From positions 104,856 to 168,855 of the forward strand of contig CAYSUL010000001.1 of the NCBI GenBank assembly GCA_964434255.1: 64,000 nucleotides of DNA. The letters are read 5' to 3'. Source of the DNA: an uncultured Candidatus Saccharibacteria bacterium (GTDB lineage Bacteria; Patescibacteriota; Minisyncoccia; Phycocordibacterales; Phycocordibacteraceae). Position 1 is the first letter of the stretch. Each line of letters begins with the position of its first letter. The notes under the pieces are model-generated. The model saw nothing but the letters and a program-made list of their open reading frames with translations, was not told the DNA's origin and did not search any database. Made by a program: the position numbers and the translations under genes. Shown one piece after another: positions 19,549 to 63,796 of the stretch.

Positions 19549-19624
19549 TGGAGCCGAAGGGGAGATTCGAACTCCCGACATTTCGCTTACGATGCGAACG
19601 CTCTACCAACTGAGCTACTTCGGC
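19549..19624 (-). tRNA. tRNA-Thr (anticodon CGU)
   Basis: 76-nt cloverleaf with anticodon loop AUCGUAA and an encoded CCA end. The ORF-track artefact EVAQLVERS is its translation. Confidence 0.85.
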
Positions 19625-19641: not shown

Positions 19642-20112
19642 TCATAATCCCGAATTCTTGCGAGAGCGTTTTCTATAAAGAAGGCCTGCCTCCTTCGCAC
19701 GATTACTGATAGCTCGGTTGGGCCTACCCTTACCTTTGTTTAAGGCAGCAAACGTGGTGGTAAGTGCATCACAATTCGGACAGAGAAGCCGTAGGTTCCC
19801 TTCAGAATTATTCCTCCAATTACCATCAATATGATCCGCCACGAGCGGCGCCTCTCCTGTTTTTGGGTTCTTTTCCGACCATCCGCACACACAGCATTTA
19901 TTTTCGAACTTCTCACGTAAATACCTTTTGACTGTCTTGTTGACCAAGCCAATACTAGTCAGTCCAGCTACTTCCCCAGATTTCCATCGCTTTATAAATA
20001 TCCTGTTTTGATATACGAACTGACACTTATTGCTGCAATATTTATAAGTGGAACGCGGAGTTTCTCCGCCACAAGCGAGACAGGGCGTCCTCGGCTTCTT
20101 CGGGTTCGGCAT
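19642..20112 (-). CDS. HNH endonuclease (low-GC, probably horizontally acquired)
   Basis: HNH motif (ADHIDGNWRNNSEGNLRLLCPNC) with N-terminal CxxC...C zinc-ribbon-like cysteines. Local GC about 45% versus about 60% background. Directly adjacent to tRNA-Thr. Confidence 0.7.
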   Translation of the reverse strand: MPNPKKPRTPCLACGGETPRSTYKYCSNKCQFVYQNRIFIKRWKSGEVAGLTSIGLVNKTVKRYLREKFENKCCVCGWSEKNPKTGEAPLVADHIDGNWRNNSEGNLRLLCPNCDALTTTFAALNKGKGRPNRAISNRAKEAGLLYRKRSRKNSGL

Positions 20113-20153
20113 ACCCCACCTCTATACCAGATAGAGATAATGAAAATATGAAA

Positions 20154-21711: not shown

Positions 21712-21760
21712 TAGTTTCTTGCAAACACAAAACCGCCCACATGGACGGTTTTGTGAAGTG

Positions 21761-22042
21761 CGCGGTCGACCGGACTTGAACCGGCAACCTTCCGCGTGCA
21801 TGCTACCCCCCTACTTTCGTAGGGGCATGGACTATATCTTCACCATAGGTTTCCCCGTAGGTGCTCCGGTATCTAGTCTCTACGGCGCCCCCCTCCGAGT
21901 GAGGGGGTTCCCTCGGTATTCGCATATCCTGGTAGACCAGGACTTAGCATTCACCGATATCCCAGAGAGTTTCAACTTGACTTTCGAACAAGAAGCTGCC
22001 TAATCGACAGGCGGATGCTCTAACCAGTTGAGCTACGACCGC
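21761..22042 (-). tRNA. tRNA-Asp (anticodon GUC) interrupted by a 208-nt group I intron in the anticodon loop
   Basis: Exon 1 (22042-22007) is GCGGTCGTAGCTCAACTGGTTAGAGCATCCGCCUGU. Exon 2 (21798-21761) is CACGCGGAAGGTTGCCGGTTCAAGTCCGGTCGACCGCG. The spliced product folds as tRNA-Asp with loop CUGUCAC and discriminator G73. Confidence 0.6.
21799..22006 (-). ncRNA. Group I self-splicing intron (ORF-less, compact) within tRNA-Asp
   Basis: Contains group I core elements in the correct order: R-like GTAGAGACTAGA, a P4-like CGGGGAAACC and the S element AAGATATAGTCC. P1 can form between exon CUGU|C and intron GGCAG with a U-G pair at the splice site. The intron ends in G before the 3' exon. Confidence 0.55.
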
Positions 22043-22120: not shown

Positions 22121-22197
22121 TGGTGCCGACGGCAGGGAACGATCCTGCGACCTTAGCTTTATGAGTGCTACGCTCTAACCAACTGAGCTACGTCGGC
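22121..22197 (-). tRNA. tRNA with CAU anticodon (elongator Met or Ile2/lysidine type), atypical A54/U58 T-loop
   Basis: Cloverleaf with acceptor GCCGACG/CGTCGGC, anticodon loop CUCAUAA and T-arm GCAGG-ATCGTTC-CCTGC. CCA is encoded. No initiator features (G1-C72). Confidence 0.7.
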
Positions 22198-22876
22198 AAT
22201 TCTCGATTTGAGCAATGCGCTCTATATAGGCCAATATCTTGTCTCTAATATCTGTACCCTTTGAGACACGCAATGCCAGAACACCATAATACACATCGCG
22301 GTTCTCGTAAATCTTTTTCCCTCTATCTAGGAAGGTGGTGCGTCGGAATTGACTAATCGGAATATCGAGAGCCTTGCTCCAAAACCGTAGAATGTCTGTC
22401 TCGCGGTCGCGATGCGTGTCGCTTATGAATATCCGTGGCATGAAACGAGACTTCTCCACCTCGAGACATTCCATGAACCAACGACTCATGAGTTGAATGA
22501 CCCGTGGGTCTGAATTTATCAGAGCGAGCGACCCAGAGTTCGATTTAACGCCCTCTCCCCAGTACAAGCCTATCCCGATTAGGAACAGCTCCCTATCCGT
22601 AAGATCAGGCAGAATGTTGATAGCTTCTTCCTGCGCGACTTTCAGACGATTCGATCGCTTCATTCTATTCATCTCAGCCCCAATCATCCGTCCGCGATGG
22701 CCTGCCACTATCTGTTTCGCATGAAGTACCTCCTTTTGCTCCGGTGTTAACTCGATATCTCGAAGCCACAAACTGACCGTGCTGGGAGCGATTTTTATCG
22801 CCCGGCCTATTTCCTTAACGCTCATCCCTTTCCGCCTCAGTTCGATAGCCCTTCGTTTCTCCTCTGGTTTAGCCAT
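22175..22876 (-). CDS. HTH domain protein with LAGLIDADG-like (GLYWGEG) motif; putative free-standing homing endonuclease (paralog of 59121..59795)
   Basis: N-terminal HTH (MSVKEIGRAIKIAPSTVSLWL) followed by FLIGIGLYWGEGVKS, resembling the LAGLIDADG block (cf. GLWIGDG). Low local GC. Its 3' end overlaps the first 23 nt of the downstream tRNA. Confidence 0.45.
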   Translation of the reverse strand: MAKPEEKRRAIELRRKGMSVKEIGRAIKIAPSTVSLWLRDIELTPEQKEVLHAKQIVAGHRGRMIGAEMNRMKRSNRLKVAQEEAINILPDLTDRELFLIGIGLYWGEGVKSNSGSLALINSDPRVIQLMSRWFMECLEVEKSRFMPRIFISDTHRDRETDILRFWSKALDIPISQFRRTTFLDRGKKIYENRDVYYGVLALRVSKGTDIRDKILAYIERIAQIENCRRSSVG

Positions 22877-23031
22877 ATGTATCGCTATCATTTTCCTGCA
22901 GGCCTCATCATCATTTCCTGGAATTTATATAAAGGAAATCTGGAATAGTAATCGTCTCGCTATGCCCACCACACCTCTTTCCTTCGTCCCATTCGCGAAG
23001 CTCCCTGTTACAATCCACTCAACATAGCCGC

Positions 23032-59001: not shown

Positions 59002-59034
59002 CTCAGGCGCTCGCGCCTGAGTCGTTTCCTTTTG
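59002..59034 (+). terminator. Rho-independent terminator (CTCAGGCG-CTCG-CGCCTGAG + TCGTTTCCTTTT)
   Basis: 8-bp G/C stem with a tetraloop and T-rich tail. Confidence 0.5.
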
Positions 59035-59108
59035 TGCGCCCGGCAGGGCACGATCCTGCGACCCCCCGGATATAAGCCGGGTGCTCTGACCAACTGAGCT
59101 ACGGGCGC
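59035..59108 (-). tRNA. tRNA-Ile (anticodon UAU), atypical A54/U58 T-loop
   Basis: Acceptor GCGCCCG/CGGGCGC, anticodon stem CCCGG/CCGGG with loop CUUAUAU. The D-arm and T-arm (GCAGG-ATCGTGC-CCTGC) are nearly identical to the CAU tRNA at 22121..22197. Confidence 0.65.
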
Positions 59109-59120
59109 TCCATCATGGAA

Positions 59121-59795
59121 TCACGGAGGTAAGTTCCGTGCAAATGTATCGCGAATACTTTCGAGGCATGCGTGCACATATTCGGATACATCGCGATTCC
59201 CATAGAGGATATTGCAGGTTCCATGAGTGAACCGTTGCGTGTAGGTAAGTCCGCTTCGGCTCGATGACTTGATGTATGGTTTTCGGAAAGCCGTTCTCGG
59301 CAGATCTAGTACCTCTGACCAATAATTCAATTCGGCTTCCGCATCCATGTCCTGATAAAGATGTATGCACACCTTCAATTTCTCTCTCGGCACGCCGAAC
59401 ATTTCCAGCCATTTGATAAAGAAGATCAATACCGCGGGATCCGTGTTCGATATAGCAGTAAGAGTATTCTGAGTCTTACTCCCTTCACCCCAATATAGAA
59501 ACAGGCCCGCTATGAACATTTCACGTTCGGACAGTGTAGAGACATCTTTCGCTGCGCGTTCATAGACTCCCTCAAGTCGTGTGCGTTTCTTCAGCGCCTT
59601 CGTCTCTCGACACTTCTCAATCCTGCGCTCACTCCATCCACGCAGCTCGTTGATTCGCTCTCGAGAAAGCGGATAGTCCTGCAACCAGATACTTAGTGTC
59701 CCCTTACTTACACCAAGCGCCGCTTTTATCTGGCTGTAGCTCATCTGCTGCATCCGCATTTCAAGCGCTCGCGCCTTTAATTCTCGTTTAGCCAT
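59121..59795 (-). CDS. HTH domain protein with LAGLIDADG-like (GLFLYWGEG) motif; putative homing endonuclease (paralog of 22175..22876)
   Basis: Collinear similarity to the 22175..22876 product (MAKxE..., LSIWLQD, FIAGLFLYWGEGSK, ISNTDP, WSEVLDLP). Low GC. Located 13 nt upstream of tRNA-Ile(UAU). Confidence 0.45.
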   Translation of the reverse strand: MAKRELKARALEMRMQQMSYSQIKAALGVSKGTLSIWLQDYPLSRERINELRGWSERRIEKCRETKALKKRTRLEGVYERAAKDVSTLSEREMFIAGLFLYWGEGSKTQNTLTAISNTDPAVLIFFIKWLEMFGVPREKLKVCIHLYQDMDAEAELNYWSEVLDLPRTAFRKPYIKSSSRSGLTYTQRFTHGTCNILYGNRDVSEYVHACLESIRDTFARNLPP

Positions 59796-59914
59796 AGTAC
59801 TTAGGAGTAGTGCACACAAAGTACTAACTCCTAGTTCAAATATTCCTGGAGAAATAATAGGGGAAAGCTGAAAACCGCCGAGACATATGTCTCGGCGGTT
59901 TTCATGTGAGTTAC

Positions 59915-61888
59915 CTAAATGTCTATCTTCGGCGACTCCTCGTCCTCTTTCGTCTTGGGTGTTATGCCGTTCGCAATGAGGAGCTTCTCGAATTCCTCGC
60001 GTTCGAGCGTCTCCACTTCGACGAGCTTCTCCGCGATGGCGTCGAGTGCCTTGCGATGCTCGGTGAGGACACGCCGCGCGCTTTCTTTCGCCTCTTCGAT
60101 GATACGGGTGACCTCAGCATCTATCGTCGCGGACACGTTCTGCGAGTAGATAGCGTCGCTATGGGCGCGGTCTGCGGCGAACGCGACCGGCCCTATCTTA
60201 TCCGACATGCCGTAGCGGGCGACCATGTCGCGCGCGAGTCCCACGACCACCGCAAGGTCGTTGGATGGTCCTGTCGTGAGGTCATCGAATACCATCTCTT
60301 CCGCGACATAACCGCCGAGCGTTGCGGCAATGTCGTCGAGGAATTCTTTCTTCGACTGCATTCTCCTGTCCTCGAACGGAAGCTTGAGCGTGTAGCCGCC
60401 TGCGCGTCCGCGACTGATGATGGAAATCTTGTGCACTGGGTCAGCGTACGGAAGCACCGACGAGACAAGCGCGTGACCTCCTTCGTGGTATGCGGTGACG
60501 AGCTTCTCCTTCTTCGAGAGAAGGTGGCTCTTTCGTTCGGGCCCGAGCATCACCTTCTCGATGGAGCGGATGAGGTCGTACTGCGTTATCTCCTTGCGGT
60601 TCTCGCGTGCAGCCAGGATTGCGCCCTCGTTCATGAGCGAGTAGAGCTCAGCGCCCGAGAAGCCTGGCGTGCGTTCCGCGATGACTTCAAGGTTCACGTC
60701 AGGACCGAACGGCTTCTTGCGGGAATGCACGGAAAGTATCGCGAGACGGTCCTTGCGATCCGGAAGATCGAGCATGACGCGCCTATCGAAGCGACCAGGA
60801 CGAAGGAGCGCTGGGTCGAGCACATCAGGACGGTTGGTTGCCGCGAGGATGATGACTTTCTCGTTCGGATCGAATCCATCCATCTCGACGAGTATCTGGT
60901 TCAACGTCTGCTCGCGCTCGTCGTTGCCGCCGCCAACACCCGTGCCACGCACGCGACCTACCGCGTCTATCTCATCCACGAAGATGATTGCCGGAGCGAC
61001 CTTCTTCGCCATGTTGAAGAGGTCGCGCACACGTGACGCCCCGACTCCCACGAACATCTCCACGAACTCGGAGCCCGAGATGGAGAAGAACGGTACGCCT
61101 GCCTCGCCCGCAACAGCGCGCGCAAGCATCGTCTTTCCCGTTCCTGGGGCGCCCATGAGAAGAATGCCCTTCGGGATGCGTGCACCTATATCGAGGAACT
61201 TCTTCGGGTTCTTGAGGAAGTCCACGACTTCCATGAGCTCTTCCTTCGCCTCCTTCGCGCCTGCGACGTCTGCGAACAATATGCGCTGCGTCGTATCAGC
61301 CGGGTCTATCATCTTCGCCTTGGACTGACCGAAACTGAACGCTTGCATGCCCGCTCCGCGCACCTGGCGCGTGAGGAACCAGAAGAGGATAGCGAGGAAG
61401 AGGATGGGAAGAAGTATCGGCGCGAGGTTGAAGAACCAATACTTGAAGCCCGACTCCGTCGCGATGGTTATCTGCGTACGAGTGAGCTCCTCTGGAGTGA
61501 CGCCGTATACTGCGAGCGTCTCGGGAAGTCCCTGATCCGGGTCCTTCATCGACTTCTTCTCCGTGCCGTCCGCGTACGTGAGCAGAAGCTCGTTCCCTTC
61601 TATCTTCACGACGGTGAGCGAGCCCGCCTTCACGTCCTGTGCTACCTGCGAGAGCGCTATCTCCTCCTTCGCCTTATCTCCTCCGAACAAAAGGGAGAAG
61701 ATGCTCATTAAGAGAAGGAACACGAGCACCGTCGAAAGGAGGTTGCCCATGAAGCCTGGGGTGCCAGGCGTGAGGAAATTGCGCGGGCCCTTGCCCTTGC
61801 CTGGTTTCTTGCCGCTCCCCTTCTTTGCCGATCCACCAGTCGGTGGAGTATTCGGCGAGGCTTTCTTGTTTGGGGTGATGGATGCCAT
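59915..61888 (-). CDS. ftsH: ATP-dependent zinc metalloprotease FtsH
   Basis: Two N-terminal TM helices, AAA module ([11 protein letters not shown]) and the HEGGH zinc site. 657 aa. Confidence 0.92.
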
Positions 61889-61932
61889 TTTTTGAGCTTA
61901 CTTCCCGACACTATACAATAAGGCGAATTGCT

Positions 61933-62802
61933 ATGGAAACGATGAAGAGAGAGCCTATCGCCATCATCACATCAGGTGGCGGCATGAAATGCGCGTATTC
62001 AGCGGGCGCTCTCGTCGCGCTCGCGAAAGAACTGAAGCTCACCTCGCCCGACATCTTCGTCTCGGCATCGGGCTCGGTGGGCGCCATGTTCTACTACCTC
62101 GCCGGCCAGTACGACGACATAGAGAAAGCGTGGACGCGGTATCTTCCCTCTCCGCAGTTCATCCGGTACGCACCATTCCCTGCGCTCCGAATCAATTACA
62201 TGGTCGATACCGTCCTCAAGCAATATCTCCCGCTCGATGTCGAGAAGGCGGAAGCGAGCAAGACGAAGTTCCTCGTGCCAGTCACCGATATACGCTCCGG
62301 CGATACACGCTTCATCGGCAATGACCTCTGGCTCAACCCGTACGAAGTGATGCGTGCCGCCACCGCGATACCGCTTCTGTATAACGGGCATGTGAATCTG
62401 GGCAGTCACAGCTATCTCGATGGCGATTTCACGACCGGTATCGCCGACCTCATCACGGCCGCCATCAACGCCGGAGCGAAGCGCATCGTCTGCATCACGA
62501 ACACCGACGCGCCCACGAAGGTGGGCAAGGCCATCCTTCGGGTATATGGAGCGCTTCTCTCTCCGGGGCTGCGCCGTGCGCTCCTGCGCGATATGGCGAT
62601 GACGCAGGATATCGAATGGCCCGGCGGCATCAAGTTCTCGCTCATCTCCCCCACCTCTCCGCTCCCGACCGTGCTGTATAGCAGGGAGCGCAGGAAGGTG
62701 GTCGAGGCGTTCACGATGGGATACGAGGACTTGCTCGCGAAGCGCGAGGAGATAGAGGAGCTATTCGGTGCCGAGCCCACTCGCGATACAGTATCGGTAT
62801 GA
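61933..62802 (+). CDS. Patatin-like phospholipase family protein
   Basis: Oxyanion GGGMKCAYSAG and nucleophile elbow (SASGSVGA), with a downstream Asp in a DGG/DGD context. Confidence 0.5.
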   Translation: METMKREPIAIITSGGGMKCAYSAGALVALAKELKLTSPDIFVSASGSVGAMFYYLAGQYDDIEKAWTRYLPSPQFIRYAPFPALRINYMVDTVLKQYLPLDVEKAEASKTKFLVPVTDIRSGDTRFIGNDLWLNPYEVMRAATAIPLLYNGHVNLGSHSYLDGDFTTGIADLITAAINAGAKRIVCITNTDAPTKVGKAILRVYGALLSPGLRRALLRDMAMTQDIEWPGGIKFSLISPTSPLPTVLYSRERRKVVEAFTMGYEDLLAKREEIEELFGAEPTRDTVSV

Positions 62803-63245
62803 GCCTCATACAGAACAAGAAAGCGCACCTGCGGTTCGAGGTACTCGAGTCGTATGTCGCGGGCATGGAGCTTACCGGCGGCGAAGTGAAGAGTTTGCGT
62901 GCTAAGCATGGCTCTCTTGAAGGGGCTCGGGTGATAGTCCGAGGCGGCGAGGCGTACGTGGCCGGCATGACTATTCCCCCATACCAGGTGAAGAACACAC
63001 CCGAGGCGTATGACCCGGAGCACGTGCGCCGCCTGCTCCTTTCCAAGAAGGAAATAAGCGAGCTTTCTGACGCAGAGTCCAAGAAGGGCTTGACAGTAGT
63101 GCCTTTGGAAGTGTATAATAGTGGGAGGTACCTGAAGCTCAAGGTCGCTATCGTGCGCGGCAAAGGAAAAGCCGATAAACGAGAGGACTTGAAGCGAGCG
63201 GACGCCAAGCTCGACATCGAGCGGGCGCTTCGCGGGAAGAAATAA
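62799..63245 (+). CDS. smpB: SsrA-binding protein SmpB
   Basis: 148 aa with conserved SmpB motifs (GxEVKS, basic C-terminal tail). Directly precedes the tmRNA. Confidence 0.85.
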   Translation: MSLIQNKKAHLRFEVLESYVAGMELTGGEVKSLRAKHGSLEGARVIVRGGEAYVAGMTIPPYQVKNTPEAYDPEHVRRLLLSKKEISELSDAESKKGLTVVPLEVYNSGRYLKLKVAIVRGKGKADKREDLKRADAKLDIERALRGKK

Positions 63246-63292
63246 GCGGGCCAGTCGCGTTCCGGACACCATCTCCTGATAGTGTCCGGAAC

Positions 63293-63699
63293 GGGGGTGA
63301 CCGGCTTTGACGGTCTGTACTTTGAGAGACGTGCGACGCGATGGAAGATTGCTGACCATCTAAATCCCGCAATCAACCAATACTTGCAAACAAAACTGTT
63401 GCAAGCGTAAAGTCTCCGTACTTCGGTAAGGAAAGCTTTGCGTTCGCTTACGCGTAAAAGCTTCGCGCTTTCGCCTAAGCGACGTCTTTTTCTCTCGGTT
63501 CTCGTAGCGAGGGGAAGGGGCGGAATCTTCTACGGGATCGGCTCGTGCTCTCCTAGGCACCGAGCTTAAACAACAGGATCAGGAAGGAGCGTTTTCGCTA
63601 GCGTTCTTATTCTCCTTCTGAAGCATCAACACTAGCTATGCGTCGTAGATTCGTCCTCAAAGCCAGATTCGGACCGGAGTTCAACTCTCCGCACCTCCA
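63293..63699 (+). ncRNA. ssrA: tmRNA (SsrA)
   Basis: 5' GGGGGUGACCGGCUUUGACGG resembles the tmRNA 5' end. The 3' tRNA-like T-arm GGAGTTCAACTCTCC is followed by acceptor CACCUCC-A-CC, giving the alanine determinant G3-U70. An internal tag ORF appears to end ...FAFAYA-stop. Located after smpB. Confidence 0.7.
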
Positions 63700-63796
63700 C
63701 CTAGTTTCACTAAAGGCCTCGAAAGAGGCCTTTAGTGTTGGCGTGTCTTGATGGATTGGAGGTTCTAATCTTTCGCAGCAACCTCTAAAAATTCCC

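Follow-up and report, generated by a model that had tools for sequence, protein, structure and literature searches.

The homodimeric LAGLIDADG enzymes (I-CreI, I-CeuI, I-MsoI, I-Tsp061I and I-Vdi141I) have a single domain of ~140 amino acids (aa), in which helix 1 terminates in G-E-G and leads into a beta hairpin, and their genes are tied to conserved RNA genes and group I introns and are patchily distributed among close relatives. Here we describe two open reading frames (ORFs), ORF1 and ORF2, found in a stretch of 64,000 nucleotides (nt) of DNA from an uncultured Candidatus Saccharibacteria bacterium (this whole stretch is referred to as the window), which share these properties with the homodimeric enzymes. 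Unlike them, the ORF1/ORF2 family has no detectable sequence-profile similarity to LAGLIDADG proteins, and its predicted strands 3 and 4 are separated by an additional helix; it carries an N-terminal helix-turn-helix (HTH) and a 44-residue linker helix, has persisted vertically for a long time and stands free, bordering a transfer RNA (tRNA) gene on its 5′ side instead of being located in an intron or intein, and its endonuclease role is predicted. We propose, with a probability of roughly 0.55, that ORF1 and ORF2 represent a new family of homing endonuclease genes that are free-standing and LAGLIDADG-like, each subfamily being specific for one tRNA gene. The family combines a predicted fold resemblance, an invariant motif, a pairing of subfamily and tRNA, an ORF that is optional at a fixed locus, low GC content at third codon positions (GC3), purifying selection and relatives in the tRNA arrays of putative viral contigs.

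In WhiA (DUF199), one chain contains two LAGLIDADG domains, both degenerate, followed by a C-terminal HTH, and the catalytic acids have been lost. In contrast, ORF1 and ORF2 have a single domain preceded by an HTH at the N-terminus, and their Glu is invariant; the WhiA Pfam profile gave no match to either ORF, and membership of the WhiA family was rejected on the basis of the domain count, the position of the HTH and the invariant Glu. Phage tRNA clusters are already known to contain endonuclease genes, and ribosomal RNA (rRNA) introns of Candidate Phyla Radiation (CPR) bacteria to contain LAGLIDADG genes. In phage T4, SegB is located in a tRNA cluster, and the tRNA region is preferentially inherited (PMC2330249). 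The present family is similar in that a nuclease-type gene lies among tRNA genes, and the optional ORF, the ORF-linked tRNA orientation and the relatives in viral arrays fit this precedent (PMC2330249); SegB, however, is a GIY-YIG protein, while the ORF1/ORF2 family is LAGLIDADG-like, occurs mainly in cellular Patescibacteria and is associated with one tRNA species per subfamily. Collaborative homing has been described for cyanophage F-CphI, which lies beside an ORF-less psbA group I intron (PMC3984707, PMC6083498). A free-standing endonuclease-type gene beside a gene with an ORF-less intron was also found in our family, next to tRNA-fMet in a third clade and next to tRNA-Asp for ORF1, although the nuclease family is a different one, the interrupted genes are tRNAs, the ORF2 type has no intron nearby and cleavage of intron-less alleles is here a prediction. 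Finally, LAGLIDADG endonucleases inside rRNA introns of CPR bacteria (Tsurumaki et al. 2024, as cited in PMC13011429) belong, as far as that citation describes them, to the same phylum and to the same general kind of element, but ORF1 and ORF2 are free-standing beside tRNA genes and their C-terminal domain has no Pfam match. A literature search found no report of this unrecognised domain family or of the architecture of an HTH plus a single domain, nor of a one-to-one pairing of subfamily and tRNA in cellular genomes or of an optional gene of this kind under strong constraint.

Pairing of the ORFs with tRNA genes

ORF1 is located on the minus strand at positions 22175..22876 of the window and encodes 233 aa from a MAKPEE start (ORF list), while a longer form of 238 aa begins at the first ATG, at 22891 (22175..22891, minus strand). 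The MAKPEE start at 22876 is common to all homologues, more than 180 of which begin at MAK, and ORF1 matched the family hidden Markov model (HMM) with an E value of 2e-86. Its TAG stop (22175..22177) falls within the 5′ part of a tRNA(CAU) gene with an encoded CCA (22121..22197, minus strand; ARAGORN, Rfam 64.2 bits, alignment), probably an elongator tRNA-Met judging from its inferred isotype, and the coordinates from ARAGORN and the ORF list give an overlap of 23 nt (22175..22197, minus strand). ORF2, a paralogue of 224 aa with the same HTH plus LAGLIDADG-like architecture, is located at 59121..59795 (minus strand; ORF list, alignment), with a longer form of 232 aa from a TTG start at 59819 (59121..59819, minus strand). 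The two proteins are 33% identical over 182 aa (E value of 2e-27); ORF2 has 2148 homologues and matched the family HMM with an E value of 3e-82, and a search of the window with that HMM detected no members beyond these two. The ORF2 stop is 12 nt ahead of a tRNA-Ile(UAU) gene (59034..59108, minus strand; ARAGORN, Rfam 65.6 bits). A previous annotation that was made from the letters and an ORF list only (the sequence-only reading) had proposed a 233-aa ORF upstream of and overlapping a tRNA(CAU), for which the ORF list, ARAGORN and Rfam agree, and a second copy of this ORF and tRNA architecture; the second ORF is a real paralogue followed by a real tRNA gene, but the anticodon of the latter is UAU (Ile) and not CAU.

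A domain profile search recovered 4360 clusters at 50% identity, comprising domain-only, HTH-plus-domain and tandem forms. To describe the neighbourhoods, 80 genome loci found with an ORF1 alignment (ORF1 type) and 80 metagenome loci found with an ORF2 alignment (ORF2 type), 75 of them with enough downstream sequence, were sampled; L-numbers and P-numbers (such as L072 and L099) denote sampled loci and sampled proteins, respectively. A tRNA(CAU) on the same strand was observed −29 to +82 nt from the end of the match in 67 of the 80 ORF1-type loci, usually followed, as in the window, by tRNA-Asp(GUC) and two tRNA-Thr genes, and an initiator-type tRNA(CAU) was present 60–190 nt upstream of the ORF in 19 of the 80. 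The gene order of the ORF2 type was ftsH, ORF2, tRNA-Ile(UAU), with the tRNA adjoining the end of ORF2 in 74/75 loci (same strand in 67, inverted in 7). Since the arrangement of ORF and tRNA recurred in 67/80 and 74/75 independent loci, it is beyond chance. In the third clade (n=12 loci), a group I intron was present 100–350 nt upstream in every case, and the interrupted gene was recognisably tRNA-fMet in 11. Among the sampled proteins, members of 400–576 aa with two domain copies were also observed (P0261, P0272, P0285, P0308, P0315, P0331, P0353 and P0358), which are either fusions or merged gene calls, and two of these, P0308 and P0353, have two HTH regions.

The ORF stop was located inside the tRNA in 45/67 ORF1-type and 23/68 ORF2-type loci, where the ORF lacks an independent stop codon, and the commonest stop was the universal U8-A9-G10 of the tRNA read as TAG. 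Termination inside the tRNA accounts for the odd C-terminal tails seen in the alignment (RRSSVG, GVAQLVRA), and suggests that the ORF and the tRNA are probably co-transcribed. A conserved extended −10-like sequence, TGTATGAT, was observed 12–20 nt upstream of tRNA-Ile, in the last codons of ORF2 (e.g. L090, L094, L098 and L099), suggesting that the tRNA may have its own promoter inside the ORF, and a different box, TACAGT, precedes tRNA-Ile in ORF-less genomes. The search for a conserved operator upstream of the ORFs found only generic TATAAT-like boxes.

Both ORF-linked tRNAs of the window have the T-arm GCAGG-ATCG(T/G)TC-CCTGC, in which A54 and U58 replace T54 and A58, the usual residues of the tRNA T-loop, while the other six tRNAs of the window have ordinary TTC(G/A)A.. 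loops. The non-canonical T-loop noted earlier for the tRNA(CAU) was therefore borne out by the alignment and extends to the second ORF-linked tRNA, whereas the D- and T-arms, previously called identical, match in their stems and differ by one base in each loop. Outside the window, the A54/U58 double change was seen only in the matching tRNA of L032 and L045 (CAU) and of L085 (UAU), and further unusual T-loops (TGCAAAT, CGCGACT) occur among the partner tRNAs of relatives. As a family hallmark it was rejected, because most relatives' partner tRNAs have canonical loops, and it is a quirk of this lineage. The GC content of the two cassettes was 0.49 (22121..22891) and 0.50 (59035..59819) as compared with 0.574 for the window, values as low being found in only 1.7% of 700-nt windows; a low GC content had been noticed from the letters, although it had been put at about 45% against roughly 60%. 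The GC3 of the ORFs was 0.52–0.53, as compared with 0.73–0.75 in ftsH, recG and the response regulator gene, and the ORF-linked tRNAs themselves were GC-rich (0.57 and 0.69). No flanking repeats or inverted repeats were found around ORF1 and ORF2.

The HTH and the predicted C-terminal fold

The N-terminal HTH of ORF1 spans aa 4–37 (22766..22867, minus strand; Pfam HTH_23 and AlphaFold helices). HTH_23 matched residues 7–45 of ORF1 with an E value of 8e-7 and also matched the N-terminus of ORF2, in agreement with the HTH proposed in the sequence-only reading; AlphaFold helices were placed at residues 4–15, 20–27 and 31–37, and R14 and W37 were invariant among homologues. The C-terminal LAGLIDADG-like domain comprises aa 94–232 (22181..22597, minus strand). 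AlphaFold models built from the family alignments reached a mean predicted local distance difference test score (pLDDT) of 92.6 for the full-length protein and 91.5 for the domain alone, and presented the HTH (4–37), a 44-residue helix and an alpha/beta domain with a beta hairpin straight after helix 94–108. This first helix of the domain terminates in GLYWGEG; the L-Y-W-G-E-G motif, read from the sequence, lies at 22550..22567 (minus strand), and its E108 is the putative catalytic acid. Two characteristic elements of LAGLIDADG proteins were found, namely the alpha-beta-beta-alpha-beta-beta-alpha core fold, in the predicted model, and a helix ending in a conserved Asp or Glu, E108 being invariant in 155 sequences. 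In these 155 homologues, which cover both subfamilies, Y105, W106, E108, G109, K111 and N121 were each at least 99% conserved, and the predicted secondary structure placed E108 at the end of helix 1 of the domain and N121 at the end of strand 2. We take these two positions to correspond to the catalytic D20 and Q47 of I-CreI, an assignment made from the predicted secondary structure and the known active site of I-CreI rather than from a superposition. The C-terminal domain thus presents a predicted resemblance to the LAGLIDADG fold whose support is moderate, not overwhelming.

Pfam, NCBIfam and PHROGs recognised only the N-terminal HTH, leaving the C-terminal ~140 residues unmatched. GLYWGEG had been proposed as a LAGLIDADG motif, with profile searches and structure prediction suggested as a check; the invariant Glu at the end of helix 1, which is the place of the catalytic acid in LAGLIDADG enzymes, the HTH_23 match and the predicted fold are in agreement with this proposal, but no LAGLIDADG profile matched and the Foldseek search was not significant. 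Two other classes were considered and rejected. The label 'transposase-like' used by JGI would suggest an insertion sequence, but only the HTH resembles transposases (NCBIfam transposase scores were far below the cut-offs), and both a transposase catalytic domain and terminal repeats are lacking; an anti-phage defence gene was rejected in view of the lack of any PADLOC match of note.

Occupied and empty sites between ftsH and recG

The order ftsH, ORF2, tRNA-Ile(UAU), facing recG, was syntenic in at least 49 loci, with FtsH proteins 43–90% identical to that of the window. Ten related genomes were then considered that had been sampled through their FtsH protein, regardless of the presence of ORF2. 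The tRNA-Ile(UAU) was located between ftsH and recG in all ten, while ORF2 was present only in the two closest relatives; in the eight genomes without it, no trace of ORF2 was detected by tblastn, and an HMM check of six of them likewise found nothing. These results indicate a core tRNA gene with an optional ORF beside it, and the FtsH tree places empty sites nested within occupied ones. A strictly core, vertically inherited ORF2, as suggested by the synteny, was rejected accordingly, given that 8/10 FtsH-sampled relatives lack it. The order tRNA(CAU)-Asp-Thr is in turn conserved across Patescibacteria. The idea that these tRNAs are not core genes was consequently not upheld, and of the presence and absence expected for a cassette, only the ORF2 part was observed, the tRNA-Ile(UAU) being present with or without it.

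The ORF2-less ftsH–recG intervals (L164–L169, L172 and L173) contain assorted small genes of 60–477 aa, and tRNA-Ile is mostly inverted in them; this place beside the tRNA gene seems to be prone to gene turnover in general. On the other side of ftsH, a patatin-like gene, smpB and the transfer-messenger RNA gene are located at 61882..63701. The order smpB-ftsH was found in 10/10 sampled relatives, and the patatin-like gene only in the two closest, which are also the ORF2 carriers. In other bacteria tilS often adjoins ftsH; no such link was found here, where the neighbours of ftsH are the patatin-like gene and smpB.

The tRNA-Ile had the same orientation as ORF2 in 67 of 74 occupied loci and the opposite one in 7 of 8 empty loci, which fits the ORF and the tRNA being copied in or inherited together. 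No clear consistent differences were observed between the tRNA-Ile of ORF2-carrying and ORF2-free genomes, a comparison confounded by phylogeny. The correlation with orientation also bears on the possibility of a strict cassette, in which the ORF and the tRNA would form one mobile unit that arrived recently from a low-GC donor with the tRNA as cargo. In line with it are the low GC content of the ORFs (below that of the flanks in 79/80 and 55/55 loci of two sets), the odd A54/U58 T-arm, found only in the two ORF-linked tRNAs of the window, and the family relatives in viral tRNA arrays. However, tRNA-Ile(UAU) occupies the ftsH–recG interval of all ten relatives whether or not ORF2 is there, the phylum as a whole retains the order tRNA(CAU)-Asp-Thr, the tRNAs are GC-rich (0.57, 0.69) and no flanking repeats were found. 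In addition, the GC content of the ORFs follows that of the host (r 0.9) and ORF2 divergence follows that of ftsH, which argues against a recent foreign origin, and we consider a cassette of this strict kind improbable. Sequence comparisons indicate instead a long-standing presence of the ORFs under purifying selection, not a recent arrival. Within one clade, divergent ORF2 allele groups conflict with ftsH, a test weakened by synonymous divergence (dS) near saturation: between L086 and L099 the non-synonymous divergence (dN) was 0.07 for ftsH and 0.24 for ORF2, and between L094 and L099 the proportion of synonymous differences (pS) was 0.52 for ORF2 and 0.68 for ftsH. This conflict hints at exchange between lineages. 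The mobile homing-endonuclease-plus-tRNA unit of the sequence-only reading was retained in part, as the ORF is optional and has relatives in phage-type arrays, while the tRNAs are core genes and the ORFs old residents.

For a homing endonuclease family with these properties, we infer dimerisation, DNA cleavage, a target site and homing as follows. The single LAGLIDADG-like domain would form a homodimer like those of I-CreI and I-CeuI, with the invariant Glu of YWGEG as the metal-binding acid and with the HTH touching DNA beyond the core site. Every subfamily, located at the 5′ edge of its own conserved tRNA gene, would most likely recognise that gene or its surroundings in ORF-less genomes; on repair of the double-strand break from an ORF-carrying genome, the ORF and the tRNA gene next to it would be copied in jointly. 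The GC content of the ORFs, lower than that of their flanks in 79/80 and 55/55 loci, is a composition typical of selfish elements and favours this proposal, as do the optional ORF2, the hints of exchange, the orientation of tRNA-Ile, the relatives in viral tRNA arrays and the HNH-like ORF described below.

Several observations weigh against this proposal. The predicted topology has an additional helix between strands 3 and 4, the Foldseek search against the Protein Data Bank (PDB) returned nothing significant, I-DmoI ranking only 43rd, and the Pfam profiles LAGLIDADG_1, _2 and _3 and Hom_end did not match ORF1 or ORF2 at E values up to 1, nor did any LAGLIDADG Pfam profile match ten tandem or long relatives or six viral relatives. 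HMM searches of the PDB with the full-length and domain alignments gave no match to the C-terminal domain, and hhalign of the domain with I-CreI gave a probability of 0.2%. At the ORF2 locus, the empty sites come from a small sample of 10 genomes, and a single clade accounts for six of the eight. ORF2 divergence tracked FtsH divergence (r 0.78), the dN/dS ratio of ORF2, where dS was measurable, was 0.06–0.24 and similar to that of ftsH, and only about one in 80 ORF1-type copies was disrupted; this looks like vertical maintenance over a long time, which is unusual among endonuclease genes that are purely selfish and would suit a host function equally well. Moreover, intact intron-less tRNA-fMet, tRNA-Met and tRNA-Asp genes adjoin the ORF in many ORF1-type loci, and if one of these is the target, the genome would need a means of protecting itself.

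The same constraint is relevant to a domesticated, WhiA-like regulator, that is, a LAGLIDADG-derived domain for dimerisation and DNA binding, with an HTH, whose nuclease activity is lost or used differently and which would control transcription of the adjoining tRNA gene or operon. The strong purifying selection on ORF2 (dN/dS ~0.07) and a long residence in which its divergence follows that of ftsH are consistent with a regulator, as is the overlap of the ORF 3′ end with the −10-like TGTATGAT ahead of tRNA-Ile, by which protein, promoter and tRNA are closely linked. Nevertheless, the putative catalytic Glu is invariant, unlike in WhiA, in which the acidic residues have been lost, and the gene is dispensable, as 8/10 relatives run tRNA-Ile with its own promoter-like sequence and without ORF2. 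The lack of a conserved operator-like motif upstream of the ORFs, the consistently low GC3 and the many different tRNA species that partner the family in viral tRNA arrays also argue against a regulator, and we regard this function as unlikely.

Group I introns, viral arrays and a second nuclease-type gene

In the window, the third gene of the ORF1 transcription unit is a tRNA-Asp(GUC) (21761..22042, minus strand; read from the sequence, RF00028) that is split at anticodon position 35/36 by a group I intron of ~208 nt (~21799..22006), with exons at ~22042..22007 and 21798..21761. The intron begins ~115 nt past the end of the tRNA(CAU) and matched RF00028 with 44.9 bits (E value of 8e-10), which is under the Rfam gathering score of 50 bits; the ARAGORN scan of the window missed the split gene. 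The reading of the exons and the RF00028 match corroborate an intron-containing tRNA-Asp beside the first cassette. This intron class has been described for Patescibacteria, whose tRNA-Asp and tRNA-Asn introns self-splice in vitro (PMC13011429), while tRNA-fMet is named once in the main text of that paper, for Cyanobacteriota. A hairpin 3′ of tRNA-Asp (21726..21755, minus strand), a 14-nt inverted repeat with 93% complementarity followed by a T-rich stretch, is likely to be the terminator of the unit formed by ORF1, tRNA(CAU) and tRNA-Asp, judging from its sequence.

Within 3 kb, a group I intron was found in 30/80 ORF1-type loci and in 0/80 ORF2-type loci. ORF-less group I introns split the initiator tRNA(CAU) in L072 and in 24 other ORF1-type loci (e.g. 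L012, L029, L063, L070 and L078); the initiator tRNA of L072 (2580..2890, minus strand), which was read directly, has the intron inserted at position 33/34. The arrangement typical of collaborative homing, an endonuclease-type gene beside a gene with an ORF-less intron, was thus observed for clade 3 and for ORF1 in the window, but not for the ORF2 type. By analogy, the position of clade 3 and ORF1 beside intron-containing tRNAs fits collaborative homing, in which the free-standing endonuclease gene and the ORF-less intron would spread together (clade 3 with tRNA-fMet, ORF1 with tRNA-Asp).

The proximity to introns is also what would be expected of an RNA-binding helper, with a maturase or tRNA-chaperone role in the folding, splicing or processing of the neighbouring pre-tRNA or of nearby group I introns. 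Some LAGLIDADG proteins are group I intron maturases, which gives this function a precedent, and it would agree with the introns within 3 kb of 30/80 ORF1-type loci and near all 12 clade-3 loci and with the probable co-transcription of ORF and tRNA indicated by the stop inside the tRNA. We nonetheless consider it very improbable, given that 0/80 ORF2-type loci have an intron, only intron-less tRNAs are near many ORF1-type loci, and the HTH is a DNA-binding module. In maturases that no longer act as nucleases, the acidic residue has usually been lost too. In addition, the tRNA-Asp and tRNA-Asn introns of Patescibacteria self-splice in vitro (PMC13011429).

Distant relatives with 21–34% identity and the same motifs, most of them with an N-terminal HTH, were found on 19 putative viral contigs of IMG/VR. 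In 18/19 the relative was located inside a tRNA array, as in the phage tRNA clusters to which the sequence-only reading had likened the cassettes, and in 11 a tRNA was present no more than 120 nt from the ORF stop, sometimes overlapping it. The partner tRNAs on these contigs vary (Val, Glu, Pro, Thr, Gly and Trp). A tblastn search of GenBank phage genomes (INPHARED) gave no family match, so that the viral relatives come from IMG/VR contigs only. In the tRNA cluster of the window itself, an HNH-like ORF of 159 aa (19645..20121, minus strand, ~46% GC) with the motif DHIDGNWRNN...NLRLLCPNCD, unrelated to ORF1 and ORF2, ends 20 nt upstream of tRNA-Thr(CGU) (19549..19624, minus strand); its match to Pfam HNH_3 was weak (E value of 0.0018) and below the cut-off. 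Its position suggests that different nuclease-type genes make use of the place immediately upstream of a tRNA gene.

The pairing of subfamilies with elongator tRNA-Met, tRNA-Ile(UAU) and initiator tRNA-Met, and of others with tRNAs in phage arrays, may also be explained by a LAGLIDADG-derived factor kept by the host in a one-to-one relationship with tRNA genes, which could be a sequence-specific guardian, a nickase or a regulator of the expression, gene conversion or inheritance of tRNA alleles. We hold this explanation only tentatively and judge it doubtful; if true, it would be the first protein family in which each subfamily is paired with a single tRNA gene.

If instead ORF1 and ORF2 are homing endonuclease genes, as we favour, they would belong to a large homing-endonuclease-like family recognised by no current domain library, and an HTH with one divergent LAGLIDADG-like domain would be a new architecture for such genes. 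The 5′ edge of a specific tRNA gene would be a new niche for them, in ultra-small bacteria as well as in putative large phages, and the family would represent natural enzymes with differing, tRNA-gene-sized specificities. An optional gene under selection as strong as that on ftsH would be a good case for studying the persistence or domestication of selfish nucleases. For Patescibacteria, a recurrent gene annotated as 'hypothetical' or 'transposase-like' would gain an interpretation, and their tRNA group I introns without an endonuclease gene of their own (PMC13011429) would gain a candidate mobility partner.

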